From the NCBI RefSeq assembly GCF_055900595.2, contig NZ_CM148325.1: a stretch of DNA of 64,000 bases; one strand, written 5' to 3'. The notes under the pieces are model-generated. The model was not told where the DNA came from and made no database searches. It worked only from the letters and a program-made list of their open reading frames with translations. This document shows, piece after piece, positions 31,946 through 55,602 of the stretch. Position numbers and translations under genes: made by a program. Every line of letters begins with the position of its first letter. Positions within the stretch are counted from its first letter, which is position 1.

Positions 31946-31977
31946 GTCTGTAGAAAAGTAAGATGAGGAGCGAAGGC

Positions 31978-32619
31978 ATGAAACCATATCAGCGCCAGTT
32001 TATTGAATTTGCGCTTGGCAAGCAGGTATTAAAGTTTGGCGAGTTTACGCTGAAGTCCGGGCGCAAAAGCCCCTATTTCTTCAACGCCGGGCTGTTTAAT
32101 ACCGGGCGCGATCTGGCACTGTTAGGCCGTTTTTACGCTGAAGCGTTAGTGGATTCCGGCATTGAGTTCGATCTGCTGTTTGGCCCTGCTTACAAAGGGA
32201 TCCCGATTGCCACCACAACTGCCGTGGCGCTGGCGGAGCATCATGACCTGGACCTGCCGTACTGCTTTAACCGCAAAGAAGCAAAAGACCACGGTGAAGG
32301 CGGCAATCTGGTTGGTAGCGCGTTACAAGGACGCGTAATGCTGGTGGATGATGTGATCACCGCCGGAACGGCGATTCGCGAGTCGATGGAAATTATTCAG
32401 GCCAATGGCGCGACGCTTGCTGGTGTATTGATTTCGCTCGATCGTCAGGAGCGTGGTCGCGGCGAGATTTCGGCAATTCAGGAAGTTGAGCGTGATTACA
32501 ACTGCAAAGTGATCTCTATCATCACCCTGAAAGACCTGATTGCTTATCTTGAAGAGAAGCCGGAAATGGCGGAACATCTGGCGGCGGTTAAGGCCTATCG
32601 CGAAGAGTTCGGCGTTTAA
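31978..32619 (+). CDS. pyrE: orotate phosphoribosyltransferase
   Basis: 213 aa from [13 protein letters not shown]; PRPP-binding motif [13 protein letters not shown]. Confidence 0.9.
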
Positions 32620-32883: not shown

Positions 32884-32915
32884 CCTCTTTTGGTCGCCGT
32901 GATGTGGAGAGTGGA

Positions 32916-33875
32916 ATGGATGCTACCCGGATAACCCTTCTGGCGCTTGATTTGTTCGGCTCGCCGGGCTGGAGCGCCGATAAAGAAATACAGCGGCTGT
33001 ATGCGCTCAGTAATCATGCCGCACGCCATTACCGACGGATTATTCTTTCTAAGCGTCACGGCGGTCAGCGGGTGGTGTTAGCCCCTGATTACTTGCTCAA
33101 AACCGTACAGCGCAACATTCTTAAGAACGTCCTTTCACAATTCCCTCTTTCCCCTTTTGCTACCGCCTACCGACAGGGTCGCCCAATCGTCAGCAACGCG
33201 CAGCCTCACTGCCAACAGCCGCAGATCCTTAAACTCGATATCGAAAACTTTTTCGATAGCATTAGCTGGTTACAGGTCTGGCGTGTGTTTAGCCAGACCC
33301 AGTTGCCACGCAATGTGGTAACCATGCTGACCTGGCTTTGTTGCTATAACGACGCGTTACCGCAGGGGGCGCCAACTTCGCCTGCCATTTCCAATCTTGT
33401 GATGCGCCGTTTTGATGAGTGCATAGGGGAATGGTGTCAGGCTCGGGGAATTACCTACACCCGCTACTGCGATGACATGACCTTTTCTGGTCACTTCAAT
33501 GCCCGCCAGGTTAAAAATAAAGTATGCGGATTGTTAGCGGAGCTGGGCCTGAGCCTCAATCAACGCAAAAGTTGCCTGATAGCTGCCTGTAAGCGCCAGC
33601 AGGTAACCGGGATTGTTGTTAATCACAAGCCACAGCTTGCCCGTGAAGCGCGCCGGGCGCTGCGTCAGGAAGTACACTTGTGCCAAAAATATGGCGTTAT
33701 TTCGCATCTTAGTCATCGTGGTGAACTTGATCCTTCTGGCGATCTCCACGCACAGGCAACGGCGTATCTTTATGCTTTGCAGGGAAGAATAAACTGGTTA
33801 TTGCAAATCAATCCTGAGGATGAGGCCTTTAAACAGGCGAGGGTGAGTGTAAAGCGAATGCTGGTGGCATGGTAA
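32916..33875 (+). CDS. retron-type reverse transcriptase (Ec107-like, 319 aa)
   Basis: RT motifs LPQGAPTSPAISNL and YTRYCDDMTF (YxDD catalytic box) plus retron-specific VTG motif (QQVTGIVVNHKP); 319 aa if started at MDATRITL; located between pyrE and slmA. Confidence 0.85.
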   Translation: MDATRITLLALDLFGSPGWSADKEIQRLYALSNHAARHYRRIILSKRHGGQRVVLAPDYLLKTVQRNILKNVLSQFPLSPFATAYRQGRPIVSNAQPHCQQPQILKLDIENFFDSISWLQVWRVFSQTQLPRNVVTMLTWLCCYNDALPQGAPTSPAISNLVMRRFDECIGEWCQARGITYTRYCDDMTFSGHFNARQVKNKVCGLLAELGLSLNQRKSCLIAACKRQQVTGIVVNHKPQLAREARRALRQEVHLCQKYGVISHLSHRGELDPSGDLHAQATAYLYALQGRINWLLQINPEDEAFKQARVSVKRMLVAW

Positions 33876-33918: not shown

Positions 33919-34515
33919 TTACTGCAACTGCGCAGCAATTAGCGGCCAGCGGGCGTCAAAGTCATCCGTCGGGCGGTATTTAAACTCGCTGCGGACAAAG
34001 CGTGACAGCATACCTTCACAGAAGGCCAGGATCTGGCTTGCCAGCAGGGTTTCGTCGGTGGTGTAACCTTCACCCTCACGCATTCTCTTTTCACGCAATA
34101 CCTGACGCAACTGCGCTTCAATACGCTCGAATAGCTGGTTGATGCGCCCTTGCAGGCGATCCTGTTCAAACATTAGTGCATGACCAGTGAGGATGCGGGT
34201 CAGGCCAGGATTACGCTCACCAAAACCGAGAAGCAGCAACACAATCAGACGCAGGCGCGCTGTGGTGTCTTTCTCATCTTTCAGAATCAGATTGATGCGA
34301 GTAATCAGGCTATCTTCGATAAACTCAATCAGGCTATCGAACATGCGGGTCTTACTGGGGAAGTGGCGATACAGTGCCGCTTCGGAAACGCCGACAGAGG
34401 CGGCCAGTTTTGCCGTCGTGATACGTTGGCTTCCATCGCTGGATTCCAGCATCAGCGCCAGAGACTGAAGTATTTCCTCGCGACGGTTCCTTTTCGCAGT
34501 TTGTTTTTCTGCCAT
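33919..34515 (-). CDS. slmA: nucleoid occlusion factor SlmA (TetR family)
   Basis: 198 aa from [20 protein letters not shown]; TetR HTH. Confidence 0.9.
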
Positions 34516-34620
34516 GTTACAAAATACCCCTGAAAATAAGCACTTGCCAGGCGGCACCCACGCTATGACCGCAAACGAAATGTTTGCGGCTATGTTATGA
34601 CGTTATTCGGATGCGTAGTG

Positions 34621-46621: not shown

Positions 46622-47650
46622 ATGGATTTATTAGCTGAGAGTATTACTGAAGTCGCTGTCTCTGGGGAAATTGCTAACACCGATCGTGTGTTAAATATCG
46701 CTTACGGTATTGACCGTAATTTTTTATTTGGTGCGGCAGTATCTATGCAATCAGTTGTTATGCATAACCCAGACCTTGCGGTTAAGTTTCATCTCTTTAC
46801 CGACTACATTGATGAAGATTATCTACAACGTGTTAACGCTTTTACCAGCAAAAATGCTAACGTTGAAGTAAGAATTTATAAAGTCTCCAGTGTCTTTATT
46901 GATATCTTCCCCAGCCTGAAACAGTGGTCTTATGCAACATTCTTCCGTTTAGTTGCGTTCCAGTATCTGAGTGAAACTATTGAAAATCTGTTATATATCG
47001 ATGCTGATGTCATCTGTAAAGGCTCATTAGCTGGATTGCTTGATATTAATTTTGATGGCGATAAATTCGCAGCTGTTATTAAAGATGTGCCTTTTATGCA
47101 GGAAAAACCAGCGAAGCGTCTGGCTATAGAGGGGCTTCCAGGGAATTATTTCAACGCCGGTGTAGTATATCTGCAGCTTGAAGCGTGGGCGAAAAATGAT
47201 TTTATGAATAAAGCCATTGCTATGCTGGCAAGTGACCCGCAGCACACGAAGTATAAATGCCTTGATCAGGATATTTTAAATATTCTGTTCTTTGGTCATT
47301 GTATTTTTATTAGCGGCGATTATGATTGCTTTTATGGCATTGACTATGAGTTAAAAAATAAAAGCGATGAAGATTATAAAAAGACCATTACCGATGATAC
47401 TAAGCTGATTCATTATGTTGGCGTAACGAAGCCCTGGAACGACTGGACGAATTATCCCTGCCAGAAGTATTTTAATGAGGCTTATCAAGCTTCTTGCTGG
47501 AATGATGTGGCGTTTATTCCAGCCACGAATGAAAAACAGTATCAAGTGAAATCCAGACATTTGAAAAGAAATGGTAATATTGCATCTTCATTTTACTATT
47601 TCATGCTCTATTATAGTAAGAAAATAGCGCGTAAGCATTTTTCCAAATAA
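46622..47650 (+). CDS. LPS outer-core alpha-glycosyltransferase, GT8 family (WaaW-like position)
   Basis: 342 aa; GT8 motif YIDADVICKG. Confidence 0.6.
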   Translation: MDLLAESITEVAVSGEIANTDRVLNIAYGIDRNFLFGAAVSMQSVVMHNPDLAVKFHLFTDYIDEDYLQRVNAFTSKNANVEVRIYKVSSVFIDIFPSLKQWSYATFFRLVAFQYLSETIENLLYIDADVICKGSLAGLLDINFDGDKFAAVIKDVPFMQEKPAKRLAIEGLPGNYFNAGVVYLQLEAWAKNDFMNKAIAMLASDPQHTKYKCLDQDILNILFFGHCIFISGDYDCFYGIDYELKNKSDEDYKKTITDDTKLIHYVGVTKPWNDWTNYPCQKYFNEAYQASCWNDVAFIPATNEKQYQVKSRHLKRNGNIASSFYYFMLYYSKKIARKHFSK

Positions 47651-47681
47651 TTATTAAGACTAATCATCCAGGGATTTTTTA

Positions 47682-48455
47682 ATGAACTTGCCCATTTATA
47701 TTGTCTCACTTAAAAGAGATATTGAGCGAAGAAATAAAATAAATGATGTCTTTCATCGATTAAACATTAATTTTGATTTTTTTGATGCCATAGATGCTAA
47801 AGATCCTCAAAATAAAGAAATTATTAATGAAATGAGATTAAGTGGTGTCGGCGCAGAAATGACTGATGGAGAAATTGCTTGTACGTTAAGTCATCAGCTT
47901 ATATATCAGGATATGATAGATAAAAATATAGAATGGGCAGTCATTCTAGAGGACGATGTTATCGTCAATGAGAAATTTAAAAATTTCCTTCAATACTTTA
48001 ATCCTTCTGAAAAAGACAAGTTAAAATATAATAATTTGTATTTGCTTGGAGGTCAGAAAGGATTACATGATTATCCAGTATTGGGGCAAAGCCTTTTTAG
48101 TAAAGTTAAGGTAAGTACTTGTATTTTTCGTCGTGTTAATTTTAATAAAAATAAAATTCGTCGTACATGTTCATATTTGATGAATAACGATATGGCACTA
48201 AAGTTGCTCAAATTGACAAAGGATTATGGCACCTATCGAGCTGATAGCTGGAAGTTAATGCATCAACATAATATTATAAAAGATTTTTATTTAGACGAAA
48301 TAATATTACATCCTATTTTAAATGAGTTTAATAGTCACCTTGAAAGTGAAAGGCTTTTAATATCGGAAAAAAAACAACCCAGGACAAGGCTTCAGAAAAA
48401 AATGAAGTTTATACGTTCCTGGATAAAGGTGGCTTTTTTTTCTCTTTTGAAATGA
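47682..48455 (+). CDS. LPS outer-core beta-glycosyltransferase, GT25 family (WaaV/WaaX-like)
   Basis: 257 aa; GT25 (Lic2A/LgtB-like) N-terminal pattern IYIVSLKRDIERRNKI...FFDAID. Confidence 0.55.
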   Translation: MNLPIYIVSLKRDIERRNKINDVFHRLNINFDFFDAIDAKDPQNKEIINEMRLSGVGAEMTDGEIACTLSHQLIYQDMIDKNIEWAVILEDDVIVNEKFKNFLQYFNPSEKDKLKYNNLYLLGGQKGLHDYPVLGQSLFSKVKVSTCIFRRVNFNKNKIRRTCSYLMNNDMALKLLKLTKDYGTYRADSWKLMHQHNIIKDFYLDEIILHPILNEFNSHLESERLLISEKKQPRTRLQKKMKFIRSWIKVAFFSLLK

Positions 48456-48489: not shown

Positions 48490-49743
48490 GTGGAAGTAAA
48501 AATTGAGCAATTTCGAAATAATAGCTGTAATTTTATTTTTTTATTATATTTAATCGGTTTGTTGTTTGTGCCAATTGATCTAAATATTACCACTAAAATA
48601 ATTAATGCTACAGGTGCATTTTCTCTTTTTTTATTAATTGTAAATAACAAGCATAATTATAATAAAAATATCATTATATTAATTCTTGGCTTACTTCTTT
48701 TGGGTGCAATGAACCTGATATGGTATGAGTTTTATAAAACAGAAGATGTAGTATATAGAAATGCTTATCGAGGCTATCTTGAGTCTGGAAAACTATTAGT
48801 ATTTAGCTCGTTGACATTTTTATTACTAAGTAAAAATAAATTCAGGCAAAATGAAAAGCTACATTTTATTTCAGCTATCTTAGTTCAAATAATCATGCTA
48901 TGTAGAGCATATTATCAAGGGATATATTTGCATGCAGACCGCATTCCCCTCTCCGCCATGAATGGGAATATTGGTCAGATGGGGGCAGCGACTATTGCGG
49001 CTTATGTGATTACATTCACTACTTTATATTCTTCAATTGTATTCATCAAAATGCAATCGAAATATAAATGGTTTCTATTTTATGCTAACTTTGCTTTAAG
49101 CTTTGCAGCAGTAATGATGACAGGAACGCGTGCGGCAATTTTCACATTCCCACTTATGATTATGGTCATATTATTTCTTCAGCATCGTGATCAAAAAGTG
49201 TTTTTATTTAAAGGATTGAGTGGTGTTTTTATATTGCTACTTGCTTGTGGTTTGATATTTAATAAGGAAATTGAGAGGCGAATTAATTCATTAAAAGCTG
49301 ATGTTATTTCATATGCTACAAAAAATAACAGTCAATCCTCGGTCGGAGCACGTTTTGCAATGGTTAATGCAGGAATTAAAGGAAGTCCTGATGGTTTTAA
49401 TTGGCAATCTCTTGAGCAGCGTGCTGAAAAGATAAAAGCATTAAGTGCAGAAAATAATATTTATAGTGGAGCTTTATTATTCCTTGATGTACATATGCAT
49501 AATGAAATTGTTGAAGCTCTTTCCACGAAAGGGAAAATTGGTCTTCTTGTTCTTATTATGTTCTATGTTGCAATGATCTACTACTGTATCCGGGAGAAAA
49601 AATATATACTTTTGGTTTTCCCTGCTTCTATTATGTTATTTGGCATTAGTGATGTCATTACGCATGCTAAACCAATACCGGCATCGTGGATTGTGTGCCT
49701 CTTCCTGTCTATATCGTTTTTGAGTAAAAAAGAACCACAATAA
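48490..49743 (+). CDS. waaL: O-antigen ligase (start codon uncertain)
   Basis: 417 aa, very hydrophobic polytopic protein with large periplasmic loop; last gene of outer-core operon; AT-rich. Confidence 0.75.
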   Translation: MEVKIEQFRNNSCNFIFLLYLIGLLFVPIDLNITTKIINATGAFSLFLLIVNNKHNYNKNIIILILGLLLLGAMNLIWYEFYKTEDVVYRNAYRGYLESGKLLVFSSLTFLLLSKNKFRQNEKLHFISAILVQIIMLCRAYYQGIYLHADRIPLSAMNGNIGQMGAATIAAYVITFTTLYSSIVFIKMQSKYKWFLFYANFALSFAAVMMTGTRAAIFTFPLMIMVILFLQHRDQKVFLFKGLSGVFILLLACGLIFNKEIERRINSLKADVISYATKNNSQSSVGARFAMVNAGIKGSPDGFNWQSLEQRAEKIKALSAENNIYSGALLFLDVHMHNEIVEALSTKGKIGLLVLIMFYVAMIYYCIREKKYILLVFPASIMLFGISDVITHAKPIPASWIVCLFLSISFLSKKEPQ

Positions 49744-51809: not shown

Positions 51810-52742
51810 TTATGCGTCGCGATTCAGCCAGGCCATATATTCCGTTACGCCTTCGGCAACGGTTTTGAACGGTTTATCGTAACCCGCCGCGCGCAGATTC
51901 GTCAGATCCGCCTGAGTGAATGCCTGATAGCGGCCTTTCAGTTTATCCGGGAACGGAATGTATTCGATCTGGCCTTTCTTGTGATAAGCAAGCGTAGCAT
52001 CCGCTACTGCCTGGAAGGATTCTGCACGACCGGTACCGAGGTTGAAGATGCCGGATACGCCATTTTCCAGGAACCACAGATTCACATCAGCCACGTCGCC
52101 CACATAGACGAAGTCACGTTTGAAGTTCTCGCTACCTTCGAACAGCTTCGGTGATTCACCGTTGTTAAGCTGAGTGTTGAGATGGAAAGCGACGCTCGCC
52201 ATGCTGCCTTTATGGCCTTCACGCGGTCCATAAACGTTGAAATAGCGGAAGCCAACAATCTGCGAGTTCGCTTCTGGCAGGATTTGGCGAACATATTCAT
52301 CAAACAGGAATTTTGAGTAACCGTAGACGTTCAACGGTTTTTCGTACTCGCGGGATTCAATAAAGTCGGAGGTGCGACCGCCGTAAGTGGCCGCGGAAGA
52401 GGCATACAGGAACGGGATTTCGCGTTCCAGACAGTAGTGCAGCAGCTCTTTGGAGTATTGATAGTTGTTATCCATCATATACTTGCCATCCCACTCGGTG
52501 GTGGAAGAGCACGCGCCTTCGTGGAAAATCGCTTCGACATCGCCGAACTCTTCGCCAGCCATAATCTGGATCAGGAAGTCTTCCTTATCCATATAGTCCG
52601 CGATATTCAGATCCACCAGGTTCACAAACTTGGTGCCGTCTTTCAGGTTGTCCACCACCAGAATATCGGTGATGCCTTTATCATTCAGGGCCTTAACGAT
52701 GTTGCTGCCGATAAAGCCCGCGCCGCCGGTAACGATGATCAT
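51810..52742 (-). CDS. hldD: ADP-L-glycero-D-manno-heptose 6-epimerase
   Basis: 310 aa; Rossmann motif [11 protein letters not shown]. Confidence 0.95.
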
Positions 52743-52955
52743 AACTGTAACCTTCGAATTATGGAGTCAGAGACAATCTCAGACACGAATGCTTCTATCA
52801 TATCACTACACGGCGTTCGCTTCAGCCATTCGCCAAAAGTGAGATTGATGGACGTTATTTATCCTGAATTTTGCAGAAGTGTTAACGCGTCATCTCGTCG
52901 CAACCTATAAGTTTGGGTAATATGTGCTGGAATTTGCCCTGTCTGGAGAATCGCA

Positions 52956-54152
52956 ATGCGTGGAGAATTTTATCAGCAGTTAACCAACGATCTGGAAACC
53001 GCAAGGGCGGAAGGGTTGTTTAAAGAAGAGCGCATTATTACGTCTGCGCAACAAGCAGACATCACTGTGGCTGATGGAAGCCACGTCATTAACTTTTGTG
53101 CCAATAACTATCTCGGACTGGCGAATCATCCGGATCTGATTGCGGCGGCAAAGGCGGGAATGGATTCTCACGGTTTCGGCATGGCTTCGGTGCGTTTTAT
53201 TTGCGGCACTCAGGACAGCCATAAAGAGCTTGAACAAAAACTGGCGGCCTTCCTGGGGATGGAAGATGCGATTCTCTACTCTTCCTGCTTTGATGCTAAC
53301 GGTGGCCTGTTTGAAACGCTGCTGGGCGCGGAAGACGCCATTATCTCCGACGCACTGAACCACGCGTCTATTATTGATGGTGTGCGTCTGTGCAAAGCTA
53401 AACGCTATCGTTATGCCAACAACGATATGCAGGAGCTGGAAGCACGTCTGAAAGAAGCGCGTGAAGCCGGTGCGCGTCATATGCTGATTGCCACCGATGG
53501 TGTGTTCTCAATGGACGGCGTGATTGCCAACCTGAAAGGTGTTTGCGATCTCGCCGATAAATACGATGCGCTGGTGATGGTGGATGACTCTCACGCGGTC
53601 GGTTTTGTCGGTGAAAACGGTCGTGGCTCCCATGAATACTGCGATGTGATGGGCCGGGTCGATATTATCACCGGCACGCTCGGTAAAGCGCTGGGTGGCG
53701 CTTCTGGTGGTTATACCGCGGCGCGCAAAGAAGTGGTTGAGTGGCTGCGCCAGCGTTCTCGTCCGTACCTGTTCTCCAACTCGTTGGCACCGGCCATTGT
53801 TGCCGCTTCCATCAAAGTGCTGGAGATGGTTGAAGCGGGTAGCGAGCTGCGTGACCGTCTGTGGGCGAACGCGCGTCAGTTCCGTGAGCAAATGTCGGCG
53901 GCGGGCTTTACCCTGGCGGGTGCCGATCACGCCATTATTCCGGTCATGCTTGGCGATGCTGTAGTGGCGCAAAAATTTGCACGTGAACTGCAAAAAGAGG
54001 GCATTTACGTCACCGGTTTCTTCTATCCGGTCGTTCCTAAAGGTCAGGCGCGTATTCGTACCCAGATGTCTGCGGCGCATACCCCTGAGCAAATTACGCG
54101 TGCGGTAGAAGCGTTCACGCGTATTGGTAAACAACTGGGCGTAATCGCCTGA
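52956..54152 (+). CDS. kbl: 2-amino-3-ketobutyrate CoA ligase (glycine C-acetyltransferase)
   Basis: 398 aa PLP-dependent class II aminotransferase family. Confidence 0.95.
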
Positions 54153-54165
54153 GTGAGGATGTGAG

Positions 54166-55191
54166 ATGAAAGCGTTATCCAAACTGAAAGCGGAAGAGGG
54201 CATCTGGATGACCGACGTTCCTGAACCGGAACTCGGACATAACGATCTGCTGATTAAAATCCGTAAAACAGCCATCTGCGGGACTGACGTTCACATCTAT
54301 AACTGGGATGAGTGGTCGCAAAAAACCATCCCAGTACCGATGGTTGTAGGCCATGAATATGTCGGTGAGGTGGTTGGCATCGGTCAGGAAGTGAAAGGCT
54401 TCAAGATCGGCGATCGCGTTTCTGGCGAAGGCCATATCACTTGTGGTCATTGCCGCAACTGTCGTGGTGGCCGTACCCATTTGTGCCGCAACACGATAGG
54501 CGTTGGTGTTAATCGCCCGGGCTGCTTCGCCGAATATCTGGTGATCCCGGCATTCAACGCCTTCAAAATCCCCGACAATATCTCCGATGACTTAGCCGCA
54601 ATTTTCGACCCGTTCGGTAACGCCGTGCATACCGCGCTGTCGTTTGATCTGGTGGGCGAGGATGTGCTGGTCTCTGGTGCAGGCCCGATTGGTATTATGG
54701 CGGCGGCGGTGGCGAAACACGTTGGTGCACGTAACGTGGTGATTACTGATGTTAACGAATACCGCCTTGAGTTGGCGCGTAAAATGGGTATCACCCGTGC
54801 GGTTAACGTCGCTAAAGAGAACCTCAATGATGTGATGGCAGAACTGGGCATGACCGAAGGCTTTGATGTTGGTCTGGAAATGTCCGGTGCGCCGCCAGCG
54901 TTTCGTACAATGCTCGACACCATGAACCACGGCGGTCGCATTGCGATGCTGGGTATTCCGCCGTCTGATATGTCTATCGACTGGACCAAAGTGATCTTTA
55001 AGGGCTTGTTCATTAAAGGTATTTACGGTCGTGAGATGTTTGAAACCTGGTACAAGATGGCGGCGCTGATTCAGTCTGGCCTCGATCTCTCGCCGATCAT
55101 TACCCATCGTTTCTCTATCGATGATTTCCAGAAGGGCTTTGACGCTATGCGTTCGGGCCAGTCCGGGAAAGTTATTCTGAGCTGGGATTAA
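54166..55191 (+). CDS. tdh: L-threonine 3-dehydrogenase
   Basis: 341 aa zinc-dependent MDR dehydrogenase (GHEYVGEV, Cys-rich structural zinc site). Confidence 0.95.
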
Positions 55192-55243
55192 CACGAACAA
55201 GGGCTGGAATACCAGCCCTTGAAGCTGATGGCAAACACAAAAT

Positions 55244-55343
<100 letters not shown>

Positions 55344-55602
55344 TAAACAAAGCGCACTTGGTCTACAATCTGAAAATCCAAAATACCAGCCCTTTTCCCT
55401 GAGGATAATCTGTTAAATATGTAAAATCCTGTCAGTGTAATAAAGAGTTCGTAATTGCGCTGATCTCTTATATAGCTGTTCTCATTATCTCTCTACCCTG
55501 AAGTGACTCTCTCACCTGTAAAAATAATATCTCACAGGCTTAATGGTTTCTTAATACAAAGCCTGTAAAACATCAGGATAACTTCAGAGGTCGTCGGTAT
55601 TT

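Follow-up and report, generated by a model that had tools for sequence, protein, structure and literature searches.

The stretch of DNA considered here (the window, 64 kb in all) holds two operons that face away from each other across a short spacer. On one side lies hldD, also called rfaD (51810-52742, minus strand), the first gene of the hldD-waaF-waaC operon, whose product is an ADP-glyceromanno-heptose 6-epimerase with a score of 677 bits against the NCBIfam equivalog NF008360 (cut-off 452). On the other side lies kbl (52956-54152, plus strand), the first gene of the kbl-tdh operon, which codes for a glycine C-acetyltransferase with a score of 746 bits against the equivalog TIGR01822 (cut-off 493); the adjoining tdh (54166-55191, plus strand) passes its own NCBIfam equivalog cut-off by a wide margin. 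Both hldD and kbl are likewise named in the PGAP annotation of Escherichia coli E200086, a strain from human stool in Mali that is 100% identical to the window over the hldD-kbl stretch, and its HldD protein (WP_000587764.1) is common to this strain and K-12 J53. The start codon of hldD ends at 52742 and the ATG of kbl stands at 52956, leaving 213 bp (52743-52955) between two divergent genes, exactly as the original prediction had it. From its length and its collinearity with other genera, this spacer can be described as an uninterrupted bidirectional control region that constitutes the empty site for the yibB cassette.

In K-12, for which strain J53 was consulted, the same interval contains a further gene: the order is rfaD (minus), yibB (plus) and kbl (plus), with yibB transcribed away from rfaD and in the same direction as kbl, and with rfaD and kbl lying 1435 bp apart. 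The K-12 order of kbl, htrL (the other name of yibB) and hldD on which the original prediction depended is thus confirmed by annotation, and its central claim, that the gene is missing between kbl and hldD in the window, also holds. A tblastn search of the 64-kb window with K-12 YibB returns nothing significant (best E = 3), a blastn search with the whole K-12-specific segment reveals no residual cassette DNA there (best E = 0.07), and no ORF of the window matches the HtrL_YibB family (PF09612/TIGR02192). A copy of the gene elsewhere was also sought, and none was found in the window or on the E200086 chromosome: a chimeric query, in which the R4-type waaL-waaC-waaF-hldD segment is joined to the K-12 cassette, finds a single match on that chromosome, which ends at the cassette boundary, indicating that, at megablast sensitivity, yibB is not present elsewhere on it. 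The spacer of the window displays no scar, cassette remnant or repeats, and the 60-mer at 52792-52851 is unique within the window.

Those 60 bp (52792-52851) are what K-12-type alleles have exchanged for a cassette of 1282 bp (locus L001, 3983-5264), as delineated by pairwise and multiple alignments. The flanks on either side of the exchange are nearly the same in K-12 and the window, with 49 bp on the hldD side being 100% identical and 104 bp on the kbl side differing by two mismatches. In the cassette, a 285-aa ORF of the HtrL_YibB (WlaTC/HtrL) family is accompanied by a promoter and a terminator of its own, and the GC content is 36% versus 49% for the window. Its hldD-proximal end deserves closer attention. 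A first pairwise MAFFT alignment misplaced the 60 bases of the window against the kbl-proximal end of the cassette, and the multi-species alignment was used in its stead; there, the first ~45 bp of K-12-specific DNA emerge as a diverged copy of the conserved hldD promoter block. Over columns 51-96 of alignment A3, which span this block, the identity of K-12 is 78% with Enterobacter sp. Ag1 and 57% with the window, and the presence of such a foreign-looking copy of the hldD promoter within the cassette suggests import by homologous replacement. The notion that the 60 bp of the window are unrelated filler was dropped, most of them being homologous to this hldD-proximal end of the K-12-specific DNA. 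The yibB-bearing spacers of strains with K-12, R1 and R3 cores are all 1435 bp long with 1-6 mismatches, from which it follows that the cassette has the same junctions in all three backgrounds.

The exchange also bears on the regulatory make-up of the region. Genomic SELEX in K-12 has reported constitutive promoters with the motifs TATACA-18-TATAAT for yibB and TTAATA-17-CATAAA for hldD, with the spacer being flagged for H-NS (PMC3946193). Both of these motifs fall inside the K-12 cassette (L001, 4177-4206 and 4194-4222), and neither the yibB promoter nor the predicted distal promoter directed at hldD is therefore present in the window. The upstream control of hldD-waaFC may accordingly differ between strains that have yibB and those that do not.

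To place the two arrangements in an evolutionary perspective, the neighborhood of hldD was taken from 80 species-representative genomes, with kbl and yibB being located in each. A compact divergent spacer is seen in most of the loci where kbl adjoins hldD: it is 213 bp long in E. albertii and in the GTDB representative of E. coli, nearly always 212-217 bp in the closest Enterobacteriaceae genera, among them Citrobacter, Enterobacter, Pluralibacter, Kosakonia, Kluyvera, Pseudescherichia and Superficieibacter (20 Enterobacteriaceae genomes have a spacer of 212-216 bp), and 228-280 bp in most of the remoter Enterobacterales that keep kbl beside hldD, such as Yersinia, Serratia, Pantoea and Photorhabdus. 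A ChIP study of Salmonella likewise gives the region as kbl<>rfaD (PMC10268841). The empty-site kbl<>rfaD pair of E. albertii, Citrobacter, Enterobacter and Salmonella is thus the same gene pair as that of the window, with a spacer of 212-216 bp and the same invariant blocks, and these relatives differ from it by ordinary nucleotide divergence only, mostly in a central, poorly conserved stretch of ~20 bp; the spacer of E. albertii, for instance, departs from the window at 13 of 213 positions. In alignment A2 the spacer of the window is collinear over its whole length with the spacers of 11 further taxa, inclusive of the 60 bp missing from K-12, at a mean column identity of 82%. Such a compact, collinear spacer across outgroup genera marks the empty site as the ancestral condition and K-12 as the derived one. 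Within E. coli the cassette is present in 1959 of 5426 complete genomes (36%) and absent from 64%. The original prediction, which took K-12 as its point of comparison, needs correcting in this respect: the absence is both the ancestral and the majority state, and K-12 bears the insertion.

A separate variant of the empty site is seen in the R2-core E. coli AR_0162, whose hldD-kbl spacer (locus L087, 14017-14229) is also 213 bp long and has 35 differences from the window as against 13 for E. albertii. About 480 genomes belong to this class of 90-95% identity, and the pattern suggests that the waa flank of R2 strains came in from a remoter lineage.

The conservation of the spacer is concentrated in two sets of blocks. 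On the hldD side, the blocks TATCATATCA..ACA and CTTCAGCC show no variation across 12 genera and persist in the alleles of K-12 and Enterobacter sp. Ag1. They cover a putative hldD core promoter (52797-52825, minus strand), with a -35-like CTGAAG (52825-52820), a 17-nt spacer and an extended -10 of the form TGaTATGAT (52805-52797). On the kbl side, CGTCATCTCGT and TTTGGGTAATATGTGC, which take up the invariant columns 145-156 and 170-185 of alignment A2, belong to the presumed promoter and regulatory region of kbl-tdh (52887-52927, plus strand) and are kept downstream of the cassette or its equivalent in K-12, Enterobacter sp. Ag1 and Citrobacter youngae. The spacer thus probably holds two divergent promoter regions, one for hldD-waaFC and the other for kbl-tdh. 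A strict scan for sigma-70 and terminator consensus over 52650-53050 made no call, and these promoter statements accordingly rest on conservation and on the reading of the sequence; a search of the literature on the heat-shock promoter of rfaD yielded no usable coordinates. The description of the spacer as promoter-like in the original prediction therefore finds support in the cross-genus invariant blocks and none in the strict scan. Between the putative hldD promoter and the gene, in what is presumably the hldD leader, a small hairpin is conserved (52767-52783, minus strand), with a 7-pair stem and a 3-nt loop. Across 12 genera, 84.5% of cells are paired versus 76.9% in shuffles, and compensatory changes occur at 4 of the 7 pairs; it might function as a 5' stabilizer or a regulatory element.

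As to the type of LPS core, in-silico PCR on the window with primers R1R4-R and R4-F, taken along with the expected product sizes from LPSTyper (PMC13293308), gives the 380-bp waaW-waaX product of the R4 outer core (47491-47870, plus strand) with 0 mismatches. No R1, R2, R3 or K-12 typing product is obtained from the window and the R1-F primer site is absent, while an R1 control locus (L085) yields its 842-bp waaW-waaV product as expected. The gene content agrees: the waa locus of the window reads waaQ-G-P-O, a GT8 gene, waaY, a second GT8 gene, a GT25 gene (waaX) and a convergent waaL, with no difference from E. coli R4 being noted. In contrast, the R1 core has waaV (GT2) where the R4 core has waaX, and its waaL is different, whereas the gene upstream of waaL in the window is of the GT25 type. 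With an exact R4 product and no R1 product, the core is R4, and the R1 core that the original prediction had taken for this strain has to be set aside. The R4-type waaL, coding for the O-antigen ligase (48490-49743, plus strand, convergent with waaC), provides by annotation a core-type marker linked to the yibB site.

Using waaL as this marker, the 5426 complete E. coli genomes were typed with contiguous or chimeric queries, each built to be covered at >80% in a single class of genomes only. The cassette is found in all 1364 genomes with an R3 waaL (100%), in 451 of 1033 with a K-12 waaL (44%), in 140 of 1834 with an R1 waaL (7.6%) and in 3 of 690 with an R4 waaL (0.4%), and by subtraction in at most 1-2 (about 0) of the remaining 505 or so R2-like and untyped genomes; these percentages describe the database rather than natural populations, given the clonal bias of a collection with many O157 strains, K-12 laboratory derivatives and ST131-like strains. 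The R2-like genomes in a systematic sample were all without yibB (5 of 5), one of them being confirmed as R2 by in-silico PCR. The suggestion that the absence of htrL correlates with core type is thus borne out as a strong statistical association but not as a rule, since 140 R1 genomes have the gene and most genomes of the K-12 type are without it. A strict rule leading from core type to yibB was rejected after the exceptions had been checked singly in both directions: the O25:NM strain 2014EL-1343-2 combines an R1 core with yibB, and Ecol_AZ159 has a K-12-type core without it. That yibB varies as an accessory gene together with the waa genes was already implicit in pan-genome work (PMC8303582). 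As yibB and waaL are only 3 kb apart and the sampling is clonal, physical linkage is the economical explanation of the association and is likelier than function as its cause. Outside these counts stands E. coli EC77 (locus L084, from bovine milk), with an R1-like waa locus, a yibB in fragments and frameshifts in many genes; it was considered as an odd variant, but may be a low-quality assembly, and was not used on account of its frameshift-rich annotation.

In light of the above, the window very probably presents the ancestral, never-interrupted hldD-kbl allele, with yibB being an accessory cassette rather than a core gene that was deleted; yibB would then be absent from the strain because the original, uninterrupted 213-bp spacer has been kept. 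The strain might, instead, descend from an ancestor with yibB into which an empty-site allele was brought by homologous recombination, for example along with an R4-type waa locus, in which case the sequence would still be that of the ancestral-type allele but the history of the lineage would be one of loss and not of non-acquisition. The waa region is indeed exchanged between lineages, and R1 cores with yibB, K-12-type cores without it and three R4 genomes with it all occur; furthermore, most other complete E. coli genomes are 95-97% identical to the window at hldD-kbl and only 8-9 reach at least 99%, implying that the region may be recombinant. Since an empty-site allele can be moved in this manner, the data cannot show that the lineage of the strain never had yibB. 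Nevertheless, nothing in the sequence demands a secondary loss, with just 3-4 bases separating the spacer from other empty-site alleles of E. coli, and the absence of yibB from 687 of the 690 R4 genomes also speaks against it, making this history quite improbable to our minds.

The two other alternatives fare far worse. That this lineage once had a K-12-like arrangement and lost yibB from it by a precise deletion has in its favor only the bare absence of the gene. A deletion could not have regenerated the 60 bp, whose conservation extends to E. albertii and other genera, and no scar, residual cassette DNA or repeats of the kind that it might have left are to be seen; the presence of these ancestral bases, combined with the lack of a scar, excludes a simple deletion, and we attach practically no weight to it. 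That yibB was relocated, or that the gap is an artefact of assembly, is hardly credible either: a diverged YibB paralogue (59% identity) is present in some E. coli and a homologue (61%) stands at another locus in C. freundii, but the searches of the window and, at megablast sensitivity, the single matching place on the E200086 chromosome speak against a relocation, and the identical 213-bp junction in thousands of independent complete genomes speaks against an artefact.

As to what the window is missing, K-12 YibB (285 aa) reaches 436 bits with the PF09612 model and 550 bits with NF008462, and NCBI names related proteins "WlaTC/HtrL family glycosyltransferase". Members of the HtrL_YibB family are also found in the LOS/LPS loci of other bacteria (PMC4172580). 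A search of the PDB with the YibB sequence gave no significant match. Its AlphaFold2 model (pLDDT 89.7), when compared to the PDB using Foldseek, retrieves GT-A enzymes (XXYLT1, the blood-group transferases GTA/GTB and LARGE1) and RmlA-type nucleotidyltransferases, with TM-scores of only 0.43-0.45 and E-values of ~2e-5; the DDD motif D232-D233-D234 of YibB is invariant. YibB may plausibly be a sugar transferase with the GT-A fold. This R4 strain is without YibB and also without the AT-rich DNA of the cassette, which was reported as H-NS-associated.

The emergence of the K-12 arrangement may be envisaged along the following lines. A single entry of the cassette into E. coli would have taken place by homologous replacement, hldD and kbl serving as recombination arms and an enterobacterium that already held yibB between these two genes being the probable donor. 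In those E. coli that have it, a minority to which K-12 belongs, the cassette would have displaced the middle 60 bp of the spacer, between the promoters of the two operons, and it might later have spread, or have been retained, along with the neighboring waa alleles. Such joint spread or retention would explain how yibB tracks the core type, being always present with R3 and almost never with R4, without being fixed by it. Consistent with a donor of this kind, the nearest YibB proteins from outside E. coli are 76-82% identical in amino acid sequence, and all those that were looked up sit at the hldD-kbl site, as in Enterobacter sp. Ag1 (81%), C. amalonaticus (80%) and Atlantibacter hermannii (76%). 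A search for the donor itself, by protein comparison, look-up of genomic contexts and blastn, recovered no near-identical cassette, with the other genera reaching only ~75% DNA identity, and a single import is hence something that we infer.

The hldD-kbl site also receives other genes. In C. youngae (locus L070, 2552-3703) and Citrobacter sp. Cu233 (locus L008), it is occupied by a gene for a 383-aa GT4 glycosyltransferase with Glycos_transf_1 and Glyco_transf_4 domains, a family unrelated to YibB, and the spacer is expanded to ~1600 bp. The occupants in other genera sit between the hldD-side and kbl-side conserved blocks, where the window has nothing inserted. In a Providencia sp. MAG (locus L068, 7115-7960), a 51%-identical homologue of YibB lies 3' of hldD, inside the waa cluster, which indicates that members of the YibB family take up varied places in LPS loci. 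One might go further and see the hldD-kbl spacer as a recurrent docking site on the border of the waa locus, at which small cassettes for sugar transferases (yibB in Escherichia, C. amalonaticus, Atlantibacter and Enterobacter sp. Ag1, the GT4 gene in C. youngae) come to lie between two conserved divergent promoters and are exchanged across genera by homologous recombination. The complete yibB-R3 association, set against the near-absence of the gene from R4, R2 and R1, would then reflect a genuine part played by YibB in the decoration of certain LPS cores and not linkage alone; we regard this combined proposal as an unlikely one.

Taken on its own, the feature is ordinary: it is the standard enterobacterial arrangement, and the presence or absence of yibB is a common kind of accessory-gene polymorphism. 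The analysis has nonetheless furnished several by-products, namely the recognition of K-12 as the derived state, the exact boundaries of the cassette, the quantification of the association between yibB and the core in 5426 genomes and the finding that the hldD-kbl site hosts different sugar-transferase genes in other genera, all of which could aid in assigning a function to YibB/HtrL.

Three further observations were made elsewhere in the window. A gene for a retron reverse transcriptase (32904-33875, plus strand; PADLOC RT_Ec107-like, E = 7e-133) sits between pyrE (31963-32619) and slmA (33919-34557) and is absent from K-12 at this position; we take this insertion point to be the site described for retron Ec107. 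Downstream of kbl-tdh, the spacer between tdh and waaH (55192-55602) measures 411 bp versus 238 bp in K-12, the extra ~173 bp being made up of REP/BIME-like palindromic units inserted at the tdh terminator hairpin, which is itself partly duplicated. Finally, beside lldP, a large gene for a YadA-like family protein, an autotransporter adhesin by the E200086 annotation, extends over ~60419-64000 (L002, 34743-38343, minus strand) and runs off the end of the window.
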